Source: Minisyncoccota bacterium | Lineage (GTDB): Bacteria; Patescibacteriota; Minisyncoccia; UBA6257; JAGOQP01 | Direction: 5' to 3' | Assembly: GCA_017991375.1 (NCBI GenBank) | Contig: JAGOQP010000002.1 | Coordinates: forward strand, 2,259 to 66,258 | DNA: 64,000 nucleotides | Shown here: piece by piece, positions 13,014 to 58,054 of the stretch | Layout of the letters: each line of letters begins with the position of its first letter | Numbering within the stretch: the first letter of the stretch is position 1 | Notes under the pieces: generated by a model | Told to the model about the DNA's origin: nothing | Database searches by the model: none | The model's input: only the letters and a program-made list of their open reading frames with translations | Translations under genes and position numbers: made by a program

Positions 13014-13155
13014 AATTTTTAGAAGTTTTTAATTTTATAAAAAGGCAACGCTTTACACCGACAATTTATTAAAATCTCATTTTGTATTCCGCTGAAGGCG
13101 GAAGAAAACCATCGGCTCATTGCGGCTTTGGCGCAATACAAATTCTTAAATTTGT

Positions 13156-13279
13156 GAACCGCCGCCTTGCAGCGGGAAAATTGGCGATTGATTTCAAAAA
13201 CCCTTGGCATTTCCTTGCGGAAATGCCTGCCGAAGCGAGGCGCGAAGCGCCGAGCGAGGCGACTAATCAACTTTGGTGG
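13156..13279. repeat. IR-A right copy (124 bp)
   Basis: See 11514-11637. Confidence 0.9.
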
Positions 13280-13561
13280 TGTTTGTTGGAAAAAGTCAGA
13301 ACTCATTTTGAACAAAATCCCGACTAATTCGCTCCGCCCCGCCGCCGCTCGCTTCGCTCGCTGTTCCGCAAAAAAAGTTTTCTTCGCATTTTTTGATTTG
13401 GCGCGCGATTTCTTTTTCTTCTAAAAGGAAAACAAAACTTTTTTGCGAGACCCTGCTCTGAACGAGCAGGGCGGCGGGGCTTCGCTTCGGCTCGGGCGAG
13501 GCGGAATTCCCCCCACACCCCCCTTCCGCCTCGCCCTCGCTTTGGACGCCGACGGAATTTG
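13278..13561. repeat. IR-B left copy (284 bp, GC-rich)
   Basis: Near-perfect reverse complement of 16141-16424; GC about 60% versus about 35% for the enclosed cargo; contains hairpins GAGGCGGAA-N17-TTCCGCCTC and GCCCTGCTC-gttca-GAGCAGGGtC; abuts IR-A. Confidence 0.9.
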
Positions 13562-13746
13562 TATTTTGCTTTGCAAAATGCACCGCAGAAAAAAGAGGTG
13601 TTGCCCTTGCCCCAACCCACCCGTGCGCGGGCAACGATAAGGAACTCCCTAATTTCGTTTGACTAAATGATAAAAATTTCATATACTAACTATTGATGAT
13701 AAAGGTTTTATATCCTCACTAACTATCATAGTAAAACTATACGAAT

Positions 13747-31348: not shown

Positions 31349-31378
31349 TTGACAAAATAGCATAAAATGTGCTATAAT
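31349..31378 (+). promoter_or_regulatory. consensus sigma70-type promoter TTGACA-N18-TATAAT
   Basis: ttgacaaaatagcataaaatgtgctataat; upstream of the GC-rich ORF at 31523. Confidence 0.6.
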
Positions 31379-31522
31379 CTGTTTGTTACAAGCACGCTAA
31401 CATATTACTTGCAGATAACAGCTCACAAAAACTGTACATGGGAATTGACCCAAAAACAGTGGTGAGCTCTTACACAGCATGGAGCCCGACTAGGAATCGG
31501 GTAAGATGCCAAGGAGGATACC

Positions 31523-31939
31523 ATGGCAAAAAGTGTTCAGTTTGTTCTCCCCTCCGCTCTCACTCTGCCCTTTTGGGCAAGGGGGGTGGCGGAAAACCAC
31601 GAAGAACCCTTTGTCGGCAAGAACGTGGAGCTCGAGTTGGTTGAGTTCTGCTCTGCCGGCGAGCCATACACCAGTGGCGAGGAGATGCTCAGGCGCTCTC
31701 TCGCCAAGACCATGCCCACGGGCAACCGGACATTCGAGCACTTGGCCGCCCATCAGGAGATCATTCCGGAGGAGTGGCGGGAGTTTGTGCTCGTTTTCCC
31801 CGGTACGGTTCTGCTCGACGAGCGCGGCCTTCGCTGCGTTCAGTGCCTGGCCGTCCGCAATGGCCGGTGGGGTCGGTACGACTATTGGCTCAGTCGCAAC
31901 CTCCGCTCCTGCTGCCGCGTCGTCGGATTCTGCAAGTAG
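31523..31939 (+). CDS. GC-rich (about 60%) hypothetical Cys-containing protein (138 aa), probably horizontally acquired
   Basis: AAGGAGG 5 nt upstream of the ATG; compositionally distinct from flanks; C-terminus RCVQCLAVRNGRWGRYDYWLSRNLRSCCRVVGFCK. Lies where rplA is expected downstream of rplK. Confidence 0.55.
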   Translation: MAKSVQFVLPSALTLPFWARGVAENHEEPFVGKNVELELVEFCSAGEPYTSGEEMLRRSLAKTMPTGNRTFEHLAAHQEIIPEEWREFVLVFPGTVLLDERGLRCVQCLAVRNGRWGRYDYWLSRNLRSCCRVVGFCK

Positions 31940-34145: not shown

Positions 34146-35084
34146 CTAATATTTCAAAAAAGCATTCACTAACGTGAGTGCTTTTTTTGTTTCTCCAATT
34201 TCAATCCAGTTGATGGTGTTGTTTCGTGAAAACCACGTCATTTGGCGTTTGGTGTATTGTTCTATATCTTTGGATAGTCCGTTGATATATTCTTCCTTTG
34301 TTATATCTTTCTTAAGTAATCGAGCTGTCCATTTATACTCAAGTCCAAACTGCTCAAGTCGTTTCCACGAAACGCCATCGCGATGTATTTTACTAACCTC
34401 GTTAATCATGCCGGCTTTAATGCGACGTTCAAGTCGCTTGTGTATTCGCTCTGACAAGATTTGTTTTGGTGCGTGTATGCCAATAAAAAGAGTGTGGTAG
34501 GGGGATGTGGCGTGCAACTGAGGAACTGGTTTTTTTGTTGTTATAACAATTTCAAGGGCTCGGATAAGGCGTCTTCGATTGTGGAAATCTATAGTGCTCG
34601 CGCGGCGTGGGTCTTTTTTTAAGAGAAGATCAAAAAGATCGCCTGTTGATTTTTTTTCAAGTTTTTTTCTCAAGACAGTGTCTGCTTTCACATTAGGGAT
34701 GTCCACGCCATTAACGAGCGTGTCTATGTAAAGCCCTGTGCCGCCGCACACAATAGGTATTATATGTTTCTGGTGTAGTCGCTGTACTATATTTTGTGCT
34801 CGTTTTTGAAACTGGGCAACGGAAAACGTTCTAGTAGGGGAGGCAACATCAAGAAGATGGTGGGGAATTCCTCGCGCCTCTTTTTTGGTTATTTTTCCCG
34901 CGGTGAGATTAAACCCTTTGTATACCTGTCTGGAGTCCGCAGAAATAATCTCTGCTCCGGCAATGCTAAATTGTTTTTTGTGGCGAATTAAAAAACGCGC
35001 GAGTAAAACAGCTAAATCTGATTTTCCAGTCGCTGTTGGTCCGCACACAACAATAATAGGGGGTTTTTGTTGAAATATTGACAT
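34146..35084 (-). CDS. miaA: tRNA dimethylallyltransferase
   Basis: P-loop IIVVCGPTATGKSDLAV; 312 aa. Confidence 0.9.
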   Translation of the reverse strand: MSIFQQKPPIIVVCGPTATGKSDLAVLLARFLIRHKKQFSIAGAEIISADSRQVYKGFNLTAGKITKKEARGIPHHLLDVASPTRTFSVAQFQKRAQNIVQRLHQKHIIPIVCGGTGLYIDTLVNGVDIPNVKADTVLRKKLEKKSTGDLFDLLLKKDPRRASTIDFHNRRRLIRALEIVITTKKPVPQLHATSPYHTLFIGIHAPKQILSERIHKRLERRIKAGMINEVSKIHRDGVSWKRLEQFGLEYKWTARLLKKDITKEEYINGLSKDIEQYTKRQMTWFSRNNTINWIEIGETKKALTLVNAFLKY

Positions 35085-35169
35085 TATATTAAAAATATGC
35101 TAGCATATAATCACGAAAAGTTCAAGAACGTACACAAAAACAGGGCAAAAAAACGCAAGGAGGAAAATC

Positions 35170-35331
35170 ATGTTGGAAGTACTTTTGCTGTCGCTCCCGA
35201 TCACAGCTCCTCTCCTTATCGGTGGGGGGCTGGTCGTCCTCTTCGTCAGAAAGAGGGCGATCACCACGCTGCGCCGGAGGAAGAACAGCCGGCACAGCAA
35301 GAGGCCCCACCAGAAGAAGCTCGTGATCTAG
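35170..35331 (+). CDS. 53-aa GC-rich small membrane peptide with polybasic tail (type I toxin-like)
   Basis: MLEVLLLSLPITAPLLIGGGLVVLFVRKRAITTLRRRKNSRHSKRPHQKKLVI; AAGGAGG 6 nt upstream; rho-independent terminator downstream; not on the >=60-aa ORF track. Confidence 0.55.
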   Translation: MLEVLLLSLPITAPLLIGGGLVVLFVRKRAITTLRRRKNSRHSKRPHQKKLVI

Positions 35332-35351
35332 ATTCACGGGCACAGAACACA

Positions 35352-35383
35352 AGAGCCGCGGCGCACGCCACGGCTCTTTTTGT
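35352..35383 (+). terminator. rho-independent terminator
   Basis: AGAGCCG-loop-CGGCTCT followed by TTTTTGTT. Confidence 0.6.
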
Positions 35384-35440
35384 TGCCGAGCTTATTTGTA
35401 GTGGTATACCATCAAAATTTTCTATATTTCTATATCTACG

Positions 35441-35480
35441 TATGTTACAAAAATTAGCGATCGCTAATTTTTGTAACATA
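35441..35480. repeat. 40-bp perfect palindrome TATGTTACAAAAATTAGCGATCGCTAATTTTTGTAACATA (copy 1)
   Basis: Self-complementary; copies also at 36189-36224 and 55707-55740. Confidence 0.95.
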
Positions 35481-35585
35481 TAAGCGCATAGGAAAAAGAA
35501 TATAAAAGATGGATAAAAATATACACAGTGGTATGATATAAATAGAAGGATAATACAAGAGACAAAAAATCGTCTTAATGATATT

Positions 35586-36155
35586 ATGAGACGCGTCTCG
35601 CGAATCGAGTTTTTGAAAAATGTGCATAGTGGTAATTTTTCAAATGCATTTACGGCATTCCTGTTTTCGTTTGGGTCGGTCGATATTCTACGAAAAAATT
35701 TGAGATCTATTGGAAATAATAGTTCGATAGATTGTCATGATGATGAGAGAAGAAAACTGAAAAGAAGATTTGATGTGGTTATGTGCCGTCTTAAAAAAGA
35801 TGGGATGATAAAAGAAGATGGGCATATAACAAAGAGGGGAATTATTTTTTTATCAAGTATTATTGGTCGTGAAAGTAAATATTTACCGACGCGATCATAT
35901 CAACATGGCAAAAGTGACACAATAACATTAGTCACATTTGATATCCCAGAAAAATATAAGAGATATCGCGAATGGTTACGGTTTGTTTTGCGAGATATGG
36001 GATTTTCGATGCTTCAGCGTAGTGTGTGGATAGGTAAAGTAAAAATTCCAAAGGAATTTTTGACGGATCTAAAAAACACTAAAATGATTCCATTCGTAGA
36101 AATAGTTGAAATCTCAAAACTCGGCTCTGTAGAAAGAATTTCCAATGCGGGATAA
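35586..36155 (+). CDS. winged-helix-like N-terminal domain fused to a Cas2-like C-terminal domain (orphan; PaaX-like architecture)
   Basis: C-terminus ITLVTFDIPEKYKRYREWLRFVLRDMGFSMLQRSVWIG aligns with Cas2 N-terminal beta-alpha-beta core (compare [38 protein letters not shown]); N-terminal ...RKLKRRFDVVMCRLKKDGMIKEDGHITKRG looks like a wHTH; no cas1/cas9 or CRISPR array in the window. Confidence 0.6.
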   Translation: MRRVSRIEFLKNVHSGNFSNAFTAFLFSFGSVDILRKNLRSIGNNSSIDCHDDERRKLKRRFDVVMCRLKKDGMIKEDGHITKRGIIFLSSIIGRESKYLPTRSYQHGKSDTITLVTFDIPEKYKRYREWLRFVLRDMGFSMLQRSVWIGKVKIPKEFLTDLKNTKMIPFVEIVEISKLGSVERISNAG

Positions 36156-36188: not shown

Positions 36189-36224
36189 TGTTACAAAAAT
36201 TAGCGATCGCTAATTTTTGTAACA
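36189..36224. repeat. 36-bp perfect palindrome (copy 2 of GTTACAAAAATTAGCGATCGCTAATTTTTGTAAC)
   Basis: 34 bp downstream of the Cas2-like gene stop. Confidence 0.95.
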
Positions 36225-36356
36225 TGTGTAAAATTTGCCCTGCCATCAATTATGATAAGCTACAATAAATAATAGAAGACCATAGTAAACCATAAAAATA
36301 GAGCTTGATCGATACAAGCTCTATTTTTATAAGTGTTTTGGTGTTTCCGTACTGTT

Positions 36357-38216
36357 TTACAAATGTTTTTTGATCTCGTTCATAATATGATCACGCGTTG
36401 CGTCAATACTCATTTGTCCCAGTTGTCCTTTATGGTAACTGCGCACACTCACTGTATTTGTTTCTTTTTCTTTATCTCCCACTACCAGAATATAGGGCGC
36501 CTTGCTTAATTCTGCTTCACGAATGCGTTTTCCAAGCGTTTCATTCGCCTCGCTTATGGTGACGCGAATATCGTCTTCGCGTAATGCGCGCGCAACCGTA
36601 TCGGCATATGACGCGTGTTTCTCCGATATGGGGAGTATGGTTGCTTGAACGGGAGACAGCCATACGGGGAACGCGCCCGCGTAATGTTCAATAAGAAGGC
36701 CGATGAATCGTTCATATGATCCAAAAAGCGCGCGGTGCAACATGTACGGCTGTTCCGTTTTCCCCTCGTTGTTTATGAAATTCATTGCGAAACGAGAAGG
36801 AAGGTTAAAATCAAACTGTAGCGTGGAGCATTGCCATTGACGTCCGAGCGCGTCTTTTATTTTAAAATCCAGCTTAGGACCATAAAACGCTGCTTCGCCA
36901 ATTTCTTCGGTGAAATGCAATCTTTTTTCTTGTGCCACGGATCGTAATACGCTTTCTGCGAACCTCCATCCACTATCGTTGCCAACATACTTGGTTTTAT
37001 TCTTTGGATCGCGGAGCGAGAGATAAACCTGCACATCGTCGATAGAAAATCCAAAAGACGTATAGATGAACAAAATAAAATCAATTACGCGCTTGAGTTC
37101 GTCTTCGACTTGATCTTTGCGGCATATAATATGCGCGTCATCTTGGGTAAATCCTCGCACTCGTGTAAGCCCAGAAAGCTCTCCTTTCTTTTCAAATCGG
37201 TATACCGTGCCACACTCAGCCCAGCGGAAGGGGAATTCACGATACGAGCGCAGTTGGCCTTTATAGATTTGCACATGGAATGGACAGTTCATCGGCTTGA
37301 GTAGATATTCTTCGGACGCGGCAATTTTCTTTTTTTGTTGTCGCTCTTCAAGCGTTTGTCCCACTTCGAGCGGGGGATACATGGATTTATTGTAAAATCC
37401 CCAGTGTCCTGATGTTTCCCACAATGTTCTGCTACCAATGTGTGGCGTACGCACTAAATCATACCCTCCCTTTAGATGTTCCTTGTACCAAAACTCTTCA
37501 ATAACGCGCCACAATAGCGCTCCTTTTGGATGCCAGAGGGGGAGCCCTAGCCCCACCGCATCATCAAGATGAAACAGATCCAACTCTTTTCCTAGTTTTC
37601 GATGGTCTCGTTTTTCGGCTTCAGCAATACGTTCCAAGTACACATTGAGCTCTTTTTGGTTTACAAAAGCCACTCCATAAATACGAGCGAGCATCGCGTT
37701 CTTTTCATCTCCTCTCCAATATGCTCCCGCAATAGAACGAAGTTTAAATGCGAGCGGATCAATTTCGCTCGTGTGGGTTACGTGAGGACCAGAGCATAGA
37801 TCAACAAATATCTCCTGAGCATGCTTTCCCGTTCCACGTATGGTGCTGTATATTGAAATACTCTTTTTTGCTTTTTTTAGCTCGCTGATTAATTCCTTTT
37901 TATACGGAGCATTTTTAAACAACGTCGTTGCGCGCGCGGGAGTGATAATCTTTTTGGAAAACGTTACATTTTGTTGAATAAGTTCGCGCATTTTGTTTTC
38001 AATCCATTCCAAATCGGTATCGGAGATTGATGAGCCCTTGGTCTTAGCATACGCCGCAAAATCAAAATCATAATAAAACCCATTATCAATTACTGGCCCG
38101 ATAGCGAGTTTGACTTTCGGCCATCGCTCAAGCACAGCTGTCGCCATAAGATGCGAGAGAGAATGCCTTATTTTTTCAATTTGTTTTTCGCCGTTTGTAG
38201 ATATTTTTTTATTCAT
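36357..38216 (-). CDS. thrS: threonyl-tRNA synthetase
   Basis: Class II aaRS core and C-terminal anticodon-binding region ...HRALFGSYERFIGLLIEHYAGAFPVWLSPVQ; 619 aa. Confidence 0.9.
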   Translation of the reverse strand: MNKKISTNGEKQIEKIRHSLSHLMATAVLERWPKVKLAIGPVIDNGFYYDFDFAAYAKTKGSSISDTDLEWIENKMRELIQQNVTFSKKIITPARATTLFKNAPYKKELISELKKAKKSISIYSTIRGTGKHAQEIFVDLCSGPHVTHTSEIDPLAFKLRSIAGAYWRGDEKNAMLARIYGVAFVNQKELNVYLERIAEAEKRDHRKLGKELDLFHLDDAVGLGLPLWHPKGALLWRVIEEFWYKEHLKGGYDLVRTPHIGSRTLWETSGHWGFYNKSMYPPLEVGQTLEERQQKKKIAASEEYLLKPMNCPFHVQIYKGQLRSYREFPFRWAECGTVYRFEKKGELSGLTRVRGFTQDDAHIICRKDQVEDELKRVIDFILFIYTSFGFSIDDVQVYLSLRDPKNKTKYVGNDSGWRFAESVLRSVAQEKRLHFTEEIGEAAFYGPKLDFKIKDALGRQWQCSTLQFDFNLPSRFAMNFINNEGKTEQPYMLHRALFGSYERFIGLLIEHYAGAFPVWLSPVQATILPISEKHASYADTVARALREDDIRVTISEANETLGKRIREAELSKAPYILVVGDKEKETNTVSVRSYHKGQLGQMSIDATRDHIMNEIKKHL

Positions 38217-55553: not shown

Positions 55554-55706
55554 TGTTTTTTACCAACCACCAACCACTAACAACTAATCACTATTCTTAT
55601 TGTAGCAGAAAAACCATACCATTTGTCAAAATGAGTAAAATCAAACAATAAATGCACAATGACACACAGACACGGGAGAATCGCAAAGAGAGCATGAAAA
55701 TTAAAC

Positions 55707-55740
55707 GTTACAAAAATTAGCGATCGCTAATTTTTGTAAC
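55707..55740. repeat. 34-bp perfect palindrome GTTACAAAAATTAGCGATCGCTAATTTTTGTAAC (copy 3)
   Basis: Identical core to the palindromes flanking the Cas2-like gene. Confidence 0.95.
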
Positions 55741-56045
55741 ATAGATAAAACATAGCAAGAGCAAGAAAGCAAAAGTTGTTTTTCCGTCTACGTTTCCGTA
55801 TTATGTACTAAGGAAGATTTAAAATAGATGAGTAAAATGTGGAATGAATGACAGAGTGAAACGAATGAGATGTGGTTAACAGTCAAAGATAAAAGATGAA
55901 TGATTACCCACATTTTCTGTATTCGACTCTGAGGGATGAACCCTCAGGTTCAGGCCCAAATGAGGGCGATTTATGGTGAGCTCGTCGAACCAGTGAAGTG
56001 AATAGAAAAATCCGTCGTTAGTTGTTTGTCGTTAGTTACTGTACT

Positions 56046-57163: not shown

Positions 57164-58054
57164 ATGTCGAAGAAGCTCGTCGGCCTGTTTGTGGCGATTT
57201 TCATCGCCATCTTCGTCAACGTTTTCTGCGCGAACATCGCGTTCGCGCAGATGCCCGTGGGAACTGCGCCCGACATCCTCGCTCAGTGGGAAGAGGTCGA
57301 GTGCCCCAACGGGTACTACGACATCGGACGCGCTGCCGTCAACCGGAATCGGATTCTGGAAGACGGGGAGTGCTACGTGGAATTCGCGTTCGGGATCCCG
57401 GGGAAGATGGGATACCGGCGCGGGTTTGGGGGGAACCAGTGTCTCCCCAAGCGTGAGATGTTCATCATCGACAGGGCCTCCGTCAGTGAGACGGGGGTGA
57501 TCAACAAGGGTACGCGGGTCGACATCCGTCGATGCGGGAACGGTTTCGAGTTGGGGATCGTTCTCAACATCCTCAACGCGGAGCGCGTCGAAGGGGAGGG
57601 GTGCGAGATGGGCTTCTGGGAAAAGAAGCCGGACCCGCCGAAAGCTGAGGCGGCGCCGACTTCACCTCCAGCTCCACCAGCTCCACCAGCGCAGGAGACA
57701 CCAAAGGTGGATGCACCTCCGATCCCCTCAAGAACGACTGTCGTCAACAACTACCCCCCCGCCTTCTCCGACGAACAGGTCGCGGAGATGCTCAAGAAGG
57801 CGGTTCAACCTCCAAAGAAGGAGAGGGGTTGGTGGAATCGCAACTGGGGATGGGTCGCTGGTGGAGTCGTTGTCGCCGGCGCGGTCATCGCGCTTGGTGA
57901 CAAGAAGGACAAGAACGACAACGGCAACAAGCCGACCATCTCGGGGATCAAGGGGGTGGTGGCAGGAGGACGGAATTCGCCGCCACGATTTGCTGGTGGC
58001 GGGGGAGGGTTTGGTGGTGCTGGCATGACCGCCGGCATCCGTGTCCGCTTCTAG
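57164..58054 (+). CDS. GC-rich (about 62%) secreted Cys-containing, Pro-rich protein with C-terminal TM and Gly-rich tail (296 aa)
   Basis: AAGGAGG 6 nt upstream; signal peptide MSKKLVGLFVAIFIAIFVNVFCANIAFA; PAPPAPPAQETPKVDAPPIPS linker; TM WVAGGVVVAGAVIAL; composition unlike the host. Confidence 0.6.
   Translation: MSKKLVGLFVAIFIAIFVNVFCANIAFAQMPVGTAPDILAQWEEVECPNGYYDIGRAAVNRNRILEDGECYVEFAFGIPGKMGYRRGFGGNQCLPKREMFIIDRASVSETGVINKGTRVDIRRCGNGFELGIVLNILNAERVEGEGCEMGFWEKKPDPPKAEAAPTSPPAPPAPPAQETPKVDAPPIPSRTTVVNNYPPAFSDEQVAEMLKKAVQPPKKERGWWNRNWGWVAGGVVVAGAVIALGDKKDKNDNGNKPTISGIKGVVAGGRNSPPRFAGGGGGFGGAGMTAGIRVRF

Follow-up and report, generated by a model that had tools for sequence, protein, structure and literature searches.

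Does the G+C-rich stretch between thrS and miaA in the genome of a Minisyncoccota bacterium hold a gene, and if so, what kind of product does it make? The question was raised by a first-pass annotation of 64,000 nucleotides (nt) of contig JAGOQP010000002.1 (assembly GCA_017991375.1), hereafter the window, in which a 53-codon open reading frame (ORF) next to miaA was described as the gene for a type I-toxin-like peptide, possibly opposed by an antisense RNA antitoxin. The reading that we favour, at a probability of roughly 55%, is that the gene is genuine, present once and inherited vertically, and that it codes for a bitopic small membrane protein of a lineage-restricted family. The type I toxin reading is not established, and we do not regard the locus as a toxin-antitoxin module.

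The ORF is located at 35170..35331 on the plus strand, and its translation is exactly MLEVLLLSLPITAPLLIGGGLVVLFVRKRAITTLRRRKNSRHSKRPHQKKLVI, the peptide quoted in the first-pass annotation. The GC content is 0.577 at 35157-35383 and 0.586 in the small ORF as against 0.436 for the window as a whole, a value for 35157-35383 that just 1.9% of 227-nt windows reach; the description of a GC-rich gene in a lower-GC background thus holds (about 58% versus 43.6%). Since a scan of GTDB genomes with MiaA gave relatives at 35% identity only, the close relatives used for comparison were taken from Logan, NCBI and JGI. These related contigs, all found through MiaA homologues, are referred to below by L numbers.

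The coding frame

The region is carried by L001-L004, in which MiaA is identical to that of the window, and by L007 and L008, in which it is 91% identical, and the frame under selection was judged from these contigs. L001 differs from the window by 3 substitutions, all at third positions and all synonymous. L007 has 17 substitutions relative to the window, as well as one 3-nt deletion, which leaves the frame intact. Read in the 53-aa (amino acid) frame, the L007 differences amount to 9 synonymous versus 7 non-synonymous codon changes, as compared with 1-3 versus 10-13 in the other five frames. With L007 and L001 pooled, 12 of the 21 changes are synonymous, 27% being expected (binomial P = 0.003). 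The synonymous divergence (dS) of the small gene between the window and L007 is 0.25, close to the 0.26 of miaA, and its ratio of non-synonymous to synonymous divergence (dN/dS) is 0.33. The GC content at the first, second and third codon positions (GC1, GC2 and GC3) is 0.54, 0.39 and 0.83, respectively. The frame-specific purifying selection, the in-frame indel and the homologues described below indicate, on comparative sequence evidence, that the 53-aa ORF is a real protein-coding gene.

In GenBank the 53-aa frame is not annotated, and the region is occupied by an overlapping 128-aa ORF (35097..35483, plus strand), entered as the hypothetical protein KBC26_00900 of a metagenome-assembled genome labelled Candidatus Pacebacteria. 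The region itself is thus not free of annotation. For the related Logan contigs, the gene callers chose a frame of the 128-aa type, the wrong strand or no gene. The 128-aa ORF was rejected as a gene on three grounds: its codon-position composition is wrong (GC3 0.37, GC1 0.60), its codon changes are mostly non-synonymous (3 synonymous versus 12 non-synonymous), and in L007 it begins ATG CTA ACA TAA, with a stop at codon 4. The only homologue found for the 128-aa protein was KBC26_00900 itself, and the frame is judged, from its sequence features, to be an artefact of a GC-rich, stop-poor stretch. Two antisense ORFs of 66 and 76 aa were also ruled out as genes by the L007 frame comparison; the 3 changes of L001 are synonymous in the 66-aa antisense frame too, but L007 gives 3 synonymous versus 10-13 non-synonymous changes there.

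A run of six G residues (G6, 35224..35229, plus strand) lies within the codons for Gly18-20. The possibility of a phase-variable G tract was considered and dismissed, as L001 interrupts the run with synonymous changes (GGC GGA GGG). In L002 (Logan ERR3438382) G7 is present in place of G6, by which the start of the small ORF is fused to the 128-aa frame; either the assembly is wrong here or the frameshift is a natural variant.

Synteny and distribution of the family

The gene order dnaE-thrS ... miaA ... gatB is constant across the related contigs, with the small ORF in the interval from thrS to miaA, where it runs towards thrS (convergent) and away from miaA (divergent). The lineages with a small gene at this position extend from 100% down to 55% in MiaA identity. 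The small ORF is 52 aa long in L007/L008 (MiaA 91%), 122 aa in L009-L011 (73%), 87 aa in L013 and 84 aa in L017 (both ~55%). Positional analogues are found in L012 (MiaA 58%; 53 aa) and in L020/L021 (57%; 47 aa, with an acidic tail in L020), while L014, L016 and L018 have no small ORF between thrS and miaA. The profile of L013 and L017 aligned with the window peptide over residues 1-42 with a probability of 96.4% (hhalign, E 1.2e-9), and L009 aligned over the helix only (hhalign, 49%). The small ORFs of L012 and L020 have VAPV and the same Shine-Dalgarno (SD) context in common. The C-terminal regions are lineage-specific, being basic in the 53-aa form, extended by an extra domain in the 84-87 aa forms, Arg-rich in the 122-aa form and acidic in the 47-aa form (L020).

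As a separate observation, the products of L013 (3699-3962, minus strand) and L017 (2209-2463, minus strand) have in common a C-terminal segment, conserved over about 45 aa (VVEY.T..G..AKG...NGAGV..L....RVA), for which no match was found in Pfam, NCBIfam or PDB sequences.

Neither the 64-kb window nor the related loci examined contained a paralogue of the small gene, for which the first-pass annotation had proposed a search, each stretch having one copy. A word-index search of 5.8 billion clustered proteins and a phmmer search of 1.84 billion representatives with the peptide gave 0 matches each, and exact-sequence look-ups of the 53-aa peptide and of the neighbouring 189-aa protein gave nothing. 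Of two scans of JGI metagenomes with family patterns, the first returned nothing and the second only L017 itself. A scan of viral contigs and tblastn against plasmids gave no relatives of the small gene, and searches of PDB sequences gave no match for the family. In Pfam, NCBIfam and PADLOC, nothing reached the cut-off for the peptides of the window, L007, L009, L012, L013 or L017, and no curated model of a small-membrane-protein family (TatA/E, AcrZ, holins or defence-system components) matched the window peptide. As far as seen, the family is restricted to one clade of Pacebacteria (Parcubacteria, candidate phyla radiation [CPR]). Judged from gene order and copy number, the small gene has been inherited vertically over deep divergence, as a single copy in a syntenic position.

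The same data bear on whether the region is foreign or decaying DNA, that is, either a fragment gained recently from a high-GC donor (for instance a surface protein's C-terminal sorting signal) or a place where the 128-aa ORF is the real gene. The GC content, the GenBank annotation of the 128-aa ORF and the insertion lying next to the locus within the window, a PaaX/Cas2-like gene between palindromes, would suit such an origin, as would the resemblance to a sortase signal of the peptide itself, in which LPITA is followed by a hydrophobic stretch and RKR and which gives sub-threshold matches to LPXTG, LAETG and PEP-CTERM models (E 0.26-8). However, the gene keeps the same position down to 55% MiaA identity with a dS equal to that of miaA, its GC3 of about 0.85 is kept in the orthologues with no decay, and the 128-aa frame is broken in L007 and has the wrong composition. 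The LPxT[GA] motif is not conserved either, LPITA occurring only in the window and L007, with VPIAV in L013 and FPFLL in L017; the protein has neither a signal peptide nor a passenger domain, and its conserved Met1 comes after an SD. The adjacent insertion is located downstream of the terminator, and relatives without it still have the small gene. This origin is largely refuted by synteny, as far as gene order can tell, and we regard it as very improbable. Because dS equals that of miaA and the position is conserved, the high GC3 is maintained and was not left behind by a recent transfer; a recent high-GC transfer is thus opposed by the synteny, the dS and the maintained GC3. Two further candidates were rejected: a sortase sorting signal, TatA or AcrZ, since no model matched and the LPXTG-like motif is not conserved, and a leader peptide or attenuator, since no gene follows before the terminator.

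The peptide and its predicted topology

The first-pass annotation had described one transmembrane (TM) helix plus a polybasic tail, and both are borne out by the sequence. The most hydrophobic 19-residue stretch consists of residues 4-22 (mean Kyte-Doolittle value, 2.1), the TM helix is predicted at about residues 4-26, and residues 27-53 form a predicted cytosolic tail containing 12 K+R and no D/E. AlphaFold2, run without an alignment, gave a helix over residues 2-42, with a block-mean predicted local distance difference test score (pLDDT) of 77-85 over residues 1-30. In five homologues M1, S8, P14, I17, G18 and G20 are invariant. The helix carries the motif [A/V/L]-P14-x3-G18, in the form of APLLIG in the window and L007, APIAIG in L009, VPFVIG in L013 and LPILIG in L017. 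The conserved core of the family is composed of this N-terminal TM helix and a basic linker, and the C-terminal tails are variable.

The codon changes are unevenly distributed between the two parts. Helix codons 1-27 show 8 synonymous changes in L007 and 3 in L001 versus 2 non-synonymous changes, and tail codons 28-53 show 1 synonymous versus 7 non-synonymous changes together with the one-codon deletion, the net charge still being +11 to +12. This distribution indicates strong purifying selection on the helix, the sequence of which matters, and that the tail matters mainly through its charge. In the five homologues, the residues preceding the helix have a net charge of -1 and those following it one of +11 to +19, from which an N-out, C-in topology is predicted.

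Predicted promoters and terminator

A predicted promoter for the small gene is located at 35078..35106 on the plus strand, with TTGACA (35078-35083), a 17-nt spacer and a TG-extended TAGCAT (35101-35106). It agrees with the consensus at 10 of 12 positions in the window and at 11 of 12 in L013 and L017, with the TG in each case. Its -35 box overlaps miaA codons 1-2, and the predicted transcription start is near 35113. On the opposite strand a probable miaA promoter (35097..35125, minus strand) is formed by TTGAAC (35125->35120), a 17-nt spacer and a TG-extended TAGCAT (35102->35097); with 8 of 12 consensus positions it is below the threshold of the scanner and was read from the sequence. The two promoters form an inverted repeat (35078-35104/35099-35125), in which the -10 boxes of miaA and the small gene overlap within the palindrome ATATGCTAGCATAT; GTTCAA and the complement of TAGCAT are kept in L007 and L009. 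The leader of miaA from this putative promoter would be about 6 nt long, and RNA polymerase bound in one direction at 35078-35125 might exclude binding in the other. Given the back-to-back arrangement, the miaA mRNA is probably not antisense to the small gene. It had been considered as a natural antisense RNA and was set aside because miaA appears to own a promoter directly upstream, so that the transcripts diverge.

The SD sequence AAGGAGG (35157-35163, plus strand) is separated from the ATG at 35170 by the 6-nt spacer aaaatc, just as previously annotated, and its AGGAGG core is kept in L007, L009, L012, L013, L017 and L020. The terminator proposed earlier is likewise present, as a predicted intrinsic terminator at 35351..35383 on the plus strand. 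The GC-rich stem (35351-35362/35367-35378) contains 11 pairs and one C.A mismatch, with TTTTTGTTG directly 3'; the sequence thus has the GC-rich hairpin (35351-35378) and the following U-run (UUUUUGUUG) by which intrinsic terminators are recognized, and the element is kept in L007. A consensus scanner reports the stem on the minus strand only, because the mismatch reads G.T there and C.A on the plus strand. Equivalent terminators, common to the small gene and the convergent thrS, are present in L012, L013 and L017.

Folding of the mRNA

The transcript of the small gene is more folded than its dinucleotide shuffles (z = -5.2). Against permutations of synonymous codons, which keep both the protein and the codon set, the coding sequence (CDS) gave z values of -3.4 in the window, -3.0 in L007, -3.7 in L013 and -5.5 in L017, as compared with values from -2.45 to +2.1 for segments of ordinary genes (miaA, gatB and two others). 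In every orthologue, stable hairpins (-18 to -27 kcal/mol within 42 nt) follow one another along the CDS; they are not at strictly equal codons between the orthologues, and the idea of one positionally conserved hairpin was therefore abandoned.

The main internal hairpin in the window (35228..35265, plus strand; 35228-35244/35249-35265) has 16 pairs and about -23 kcal/mol, and pairs the codons for the end of the helix (GUC GUC CUC UUC) with those for the basic linker (AGA AAG AGG GCG AUC). Between the window and L007, 4 of 4 changed pairs in this hairpin still pair, and two further changes are at unpaired positions. The second internal hairpin (35268..35298, plus strand) is GCUG.CGCCGG...CCGGC.CAGC, the stems of which are without substitution in L007. 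Another hairpin spans the stop codon (35319..35341, plus strand; GCUCGUGA-UCUAGAU-UCACGGGC), and 35315-35349 is identical in L007. In the window, GGAGG pairs with an internal CUCCUC (35159-35164/35208-35213), its unpaired probability being 0.03. A substitution breaks this helix in L007, and the unpaired probability is 0.55 in L007, 0.48 in L013 and 0.41 in L017, in these three at or above that of the synonymous-permutation controls. An open ribosome-binding site (RBS) before a heavily structured body is more in keeping with a stable message that is translated than with a toxin mRNA that is locked.

Such folding could also mean that the functional product is an RNA, namely, a GC-rich structured, regulatory or dual-function RNA of about 270 nt, for which the ORF is incidental or secondary. 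GC-rich islands in AT-rich genomes are typically structured RNAs, and the locus is a GC-rich island in a lower-GC genome. The z values against both kinds of control (-5.2, and -3 to -5.5), the finding of 17 of 28 substitutions at unpaired positions with the main hairpin still pairing, and the conservation of synonymous sites in the 3' half of the ORF all agree with an RNA product. Against it stand the coding properties: the GC3 periodicity (0.83-0.86), a synonymous excess in one frame only, an in-frame deletion in L007, a start codon and SD kept in every lineage, and homology that can be detected at the protein level where the DNA no longer aligns. Searches of Rfam, both at the gathering threshold and at E<=10, gave no match in the ORF, and weak sub-gathering matches over the terminator and the downstream palindrome. 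We consider this RNA reading quite improbable, though the transcript may have a dual function.

SD-led genes in a background without SD

Among the 36 ORFs of the window, an SD-like motif precedes 3, and these are exactly the three with GC3 of at least 0.75: 31523..31939, 35170..35331 and 57164..58054. None of the other 33 ORFs has an SD, and a TANNNT box placed slightly ahead of the ATG in several of them suggests, from the sequence, leaderless or short-leader mRNAs. In L012, L013, L017 and L020, the small gene is the only SD-led one of 26 called genes (0 of the 22 others). In the window, L007, L013 and L017, the small gene has a GC3 of 0.83-0.86, as compared with 0.36-0.46 for its neighbours. 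The orthologues thus keep the SD, the excess mRNA structure and a GC3 of about 0.85 together, and the other genes of the clade are without them.

The anti-SD motif is absent from about half of Parcubacteria 16S rRNAs (PMC9297842), and ordinary genes without SD are consistent with this loss (PMC9297842). There is no rRNA in the window.

The other two SD-led genes, 31523-31939 and 57164-58054 (both plus strand), have a GC content of 0.61, GC3 of 0.75-0.76 and perfect AAGGAGG-type SDs. The former encodes 138 aa, is preceded by a consensus promoter at about 31350-31380 and lies between rplK and gatB, where the relatives have tmk; the latter encodes 296 aa, among them a signal peptide and, towards the C-terminus, a hydrophobic segment. 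For neither product was a Pfam family found, and tblastn of both against phages gave nothing.

It is conceivable, though tentative, that the small gene is the conserved flagship of a small class of SD-led, GC3-rich, hyper-structured mRNAs, represented in the window by the three SD-led genes, in a lineage that otherwise initiates without SD pairing. Some members of the lineage may lack the anti-SD, and the SD, the tiled hairpins and the GC3 near 0.85 would be preserved by selection as an expression regime of their own. In one version this regime would consist in SD-dependent or conditional initiation, and in another in slowed elongation for co-translational membrane insertion; as a variant, the locus would be the first membrane type I toxin module in CPR.

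The toxin question

The proposal of a type I toxin was that the peptide is of the Fst/Ldr kind and that its structured mRNA is silenced by an RNA antitoxin that has escaped detection. Such an antitoxin could be trans-encoded, could have a non-consensus promoter or could arise by read-through of the convergent thrS. Membrane type I toxins are hydrophobic peptides of < 60 aa with one TM alpha-helix and cationic residues near the C-terminus (PMC8309996), features which the 53 aa, the helix at residues 4-26 and the cationic C-terminus of the window peptide fit. An APXXXG motif of Fst, Lpt and SprA1 is required for Fst and Lpt to be toxic (PMC8309996), and the invariant [A/V/L]-P14-x3-G18 of the five homologues resembles it; however, P-x3-G is short, and by a rough estimate it is expected by chance in about 5% of helices. 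The homologues of 84-122 aa are beyond the size of membrane type I toxins. By hhalign, the family profile matched Fst, its sequence checked against PDB 2KV5, with a probability of 6.4%, and 2KV5 was absent at E<=10 from the results of a profile search of PDB sequences. Pfam, NCBIfam and PADLOC gave no match to a type I toxin model; for Pfam Fst_toxin this negative is weak, because the model is so insensitive that Fst itself scores 22.8 bits against a cut-off of 36.

The features of the mRNA are divided. It is far more folded than its synonymous permutations, and in the window GGAGG is paired as described above; in L007, L013 and L017 it is accessible, so that sequestration of the RBS is not a property of the family. 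In the par locus, RNA I and RNA II are arranged convergently. The terminator stem of the small gene scores as terminator-like on the minus strand too, as in a convergent arrangement of the par type, and synonymous sites changed at 0 of 13 in the 3' half of the ORF versus 9 of 28 in the 5' part, which an overlapping antisense partner could explain. Within about 250 nt, however, the only sigma-70-like promoter on either strand is the sense one in the window, L013 and L017, a scan outside which a trans-encoded RNA or a non-consensus promoter would fall; the antitoxin suggested on the opposite strand thus found no support. The segment 35386-35440, the exact place for a convergent promoter, is the least conserved (74.5% identical to L007). 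In L013 and L017 the small gene is enclosed between a 5' untranslated region of about 24 nt and the thrS terminator, leaving no room for an antitoxin gene. The small gene is, moreover, single-copy, core syntenic and vertical, with no paralogues and no plasmid or phage copies found. A full-text literature search gave no paper mentioning type I toxin-antitoxin systems together with Patescibacteria. Altogether, a real small-peptide gene with its own promoter, RBS and terminator is supported, as are its P-x3-G motif and its structured mRNA; toxin-family matches, consistent RBS sequestration and, within the reach of the promoter scan, an antisense RNA are not, and we hold a type I toxin to be rather unlikely.

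Neighbouring features

A perfect 34-36-nt palindrome, GTTACAAAAATTAGCGATCGCTAATTTTTGTAAC, is present in three intergenic copies, at 35443-35478, 36189-36224 and about 55706-55741. Short-read contigs with miaA all break inside the palindrome downstream of the small gene, indicating that it is probably a multi-copy repeat like the repetitive extragenic palindromic (REP) elements. In the L009 lineage a different palindrome with the same CGATCG centre is found at the same place. The copies at 35443-35478 and 36189-36224 flank a 189-aa ORF (35586-36155, plus strand; GC3 0.29), the product of which matches Cas2 models and the central Cas2-like domain of PaaX (PF20803, E 4.7e-10). In comparison with L012, L013 and L017, this gene with its flanking palindromes is an insertion between the small-gene terminator and thrS. 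Just upstream of the start of thrS (36357-38216, placed on the minus strand), a 16-bp AT-rich hairpin at 36292-36330, ATAAAAATAGAGCTTGATCGATACAAGCTCTATTTTTAT, with the centre GATCGATC, is terminator-like on both strands.

Elsewhere in the window, 13097-13338 (plus strand), which belongs with the GC-rich stretch 13200-13650 to an intergenic region with a GC content of up to 0.555, gave a sub-threshold match to an RNase P model (RF00009; 18.4 bits versus a gathering score of 28, E 0.0027). The region may encode an RNase P RNA of a divergent and reduced CPR type, or some other structured RNA.

Function and significance

In the favoured reading of a bitopic small membrane protein, the first 3 residues would be outside, residues 4-26 or so would cross the membrane, and the cationic tail would lie at the cytoplasmic face, where its basic residues would hold the protein at the anionic inner leaflet. 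The protein is probably made constitutively and in abundance. The helix would act by sequence-specific helix-helix contacts in the membrane, and the protein may form a homo-oligomer or be a small subunit, accessory or regulatory, of a membrane complex. The GC-rich structured mRNA would stabilize the message and/or slow elongation, and with slower elongation the helix, in spite of the shortness of the protein, would arrive at the membrane machinery ahead of termination.

Several points weigh against a protein of this kind. The comparison of the window with L007 involves just 17 substitutions, and the frameshift of L002, if real, would mean that the small gene is dispensable. The small ORFs of L012 and L020 are not detected by the family profile and count as positional analogues only, and the strongly differing C-terminal regions imply that the function may not be uniform. 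In no lineage is a membrane-protein gene linked to the small gene, and the role of accessory subunit is inferred by analogy with characterized bacterial small membrane proteins. The size, the one helix, the cationic C-terminus, the P-x3-G and the structured mRNA fit membrane type I toxins equally.

The annotation of the locus is to be corrected from a 128-aa hypothetical protein to a 53-aa membrane protein, and similar mis-calls recur in related assemblies. Small membrane proteins are themselves known in bacteria; what is added here is a new lineage-specific family of them in CPR, where, to our knowledge, small proteins are essentially unstudied. Within one genome, ordinary genes have no SD and a GC3 of about 0.4, in contrast to the perfect SD, the GC3 of about 0.85 and the excess mRNA structure that the small gene retains across deep divergence. 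Since many Parcubacteria are without the anti-SD motif (PMC9297842), the contrast in SD bears on how they initiate translation. If the peptide should be toxic, membrane type I toxins would extend beyond Proteobacteria and Firmicutes.

Comparison with known systems

The order of the elements LPITA, hydrophobic stretch and basic cluster is the same as in C-terminal sorting signals (LPXTG, LAETG and PEP-CTERM). In contrast to these, the small protein is a whole protein, with Met1 behind an SD 8 residues before the motif, and has no passenger.

With Fst (of pAD1 par, PDB 2KV5), Lpt and SprA1, the peptide has in common its small size, a single helix from about residue 4, an acidic or charged residue 3, the A-P-x3-G kink motif and a charged cytosolic C-terminal tail, as well as a strongly structured mRNA ending in a GC-rich terminator. 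It differs in that no antisense or convergent RNA gene was detected and the RBS is not reliably sequestered; the sequence similarity is not significant, and the gene is single-copy, chromosomal and syntenic, with homologues of up to 122 aa. The tail is acidic in Fst, whereas that of the small protein is far longer and more basic (+12).

AcrZ, MgrB, KdpF and CydX are small single-pass membrane proteins that modulate larger membrane complexes. The small protein resembles them in its size range (about 30-60 aa) and in having one helix more constrained than the rest, and such proteins too are often missed or mis-called. Its N-terminus, MLEVLLLSL, is reminiscent of the MLELLKSL of AcrZ. No sequence relationship to these proteins was seen in the Pfam and NCBIfam scans, and the small gene is without a linked gene for a partner complex. 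We know of no protein of this type with a GC3-locked, hyper-structured mRNA.

Rare SD-led genes are also found in lineages that do not use SD sequences, for example, rpsU in Flavobacteriia. The product here is a membrane peptide and not a ribosomal protein, but the two cases are alike in that, in a background free of SD, one gene keeps a perfect SD across lineages.

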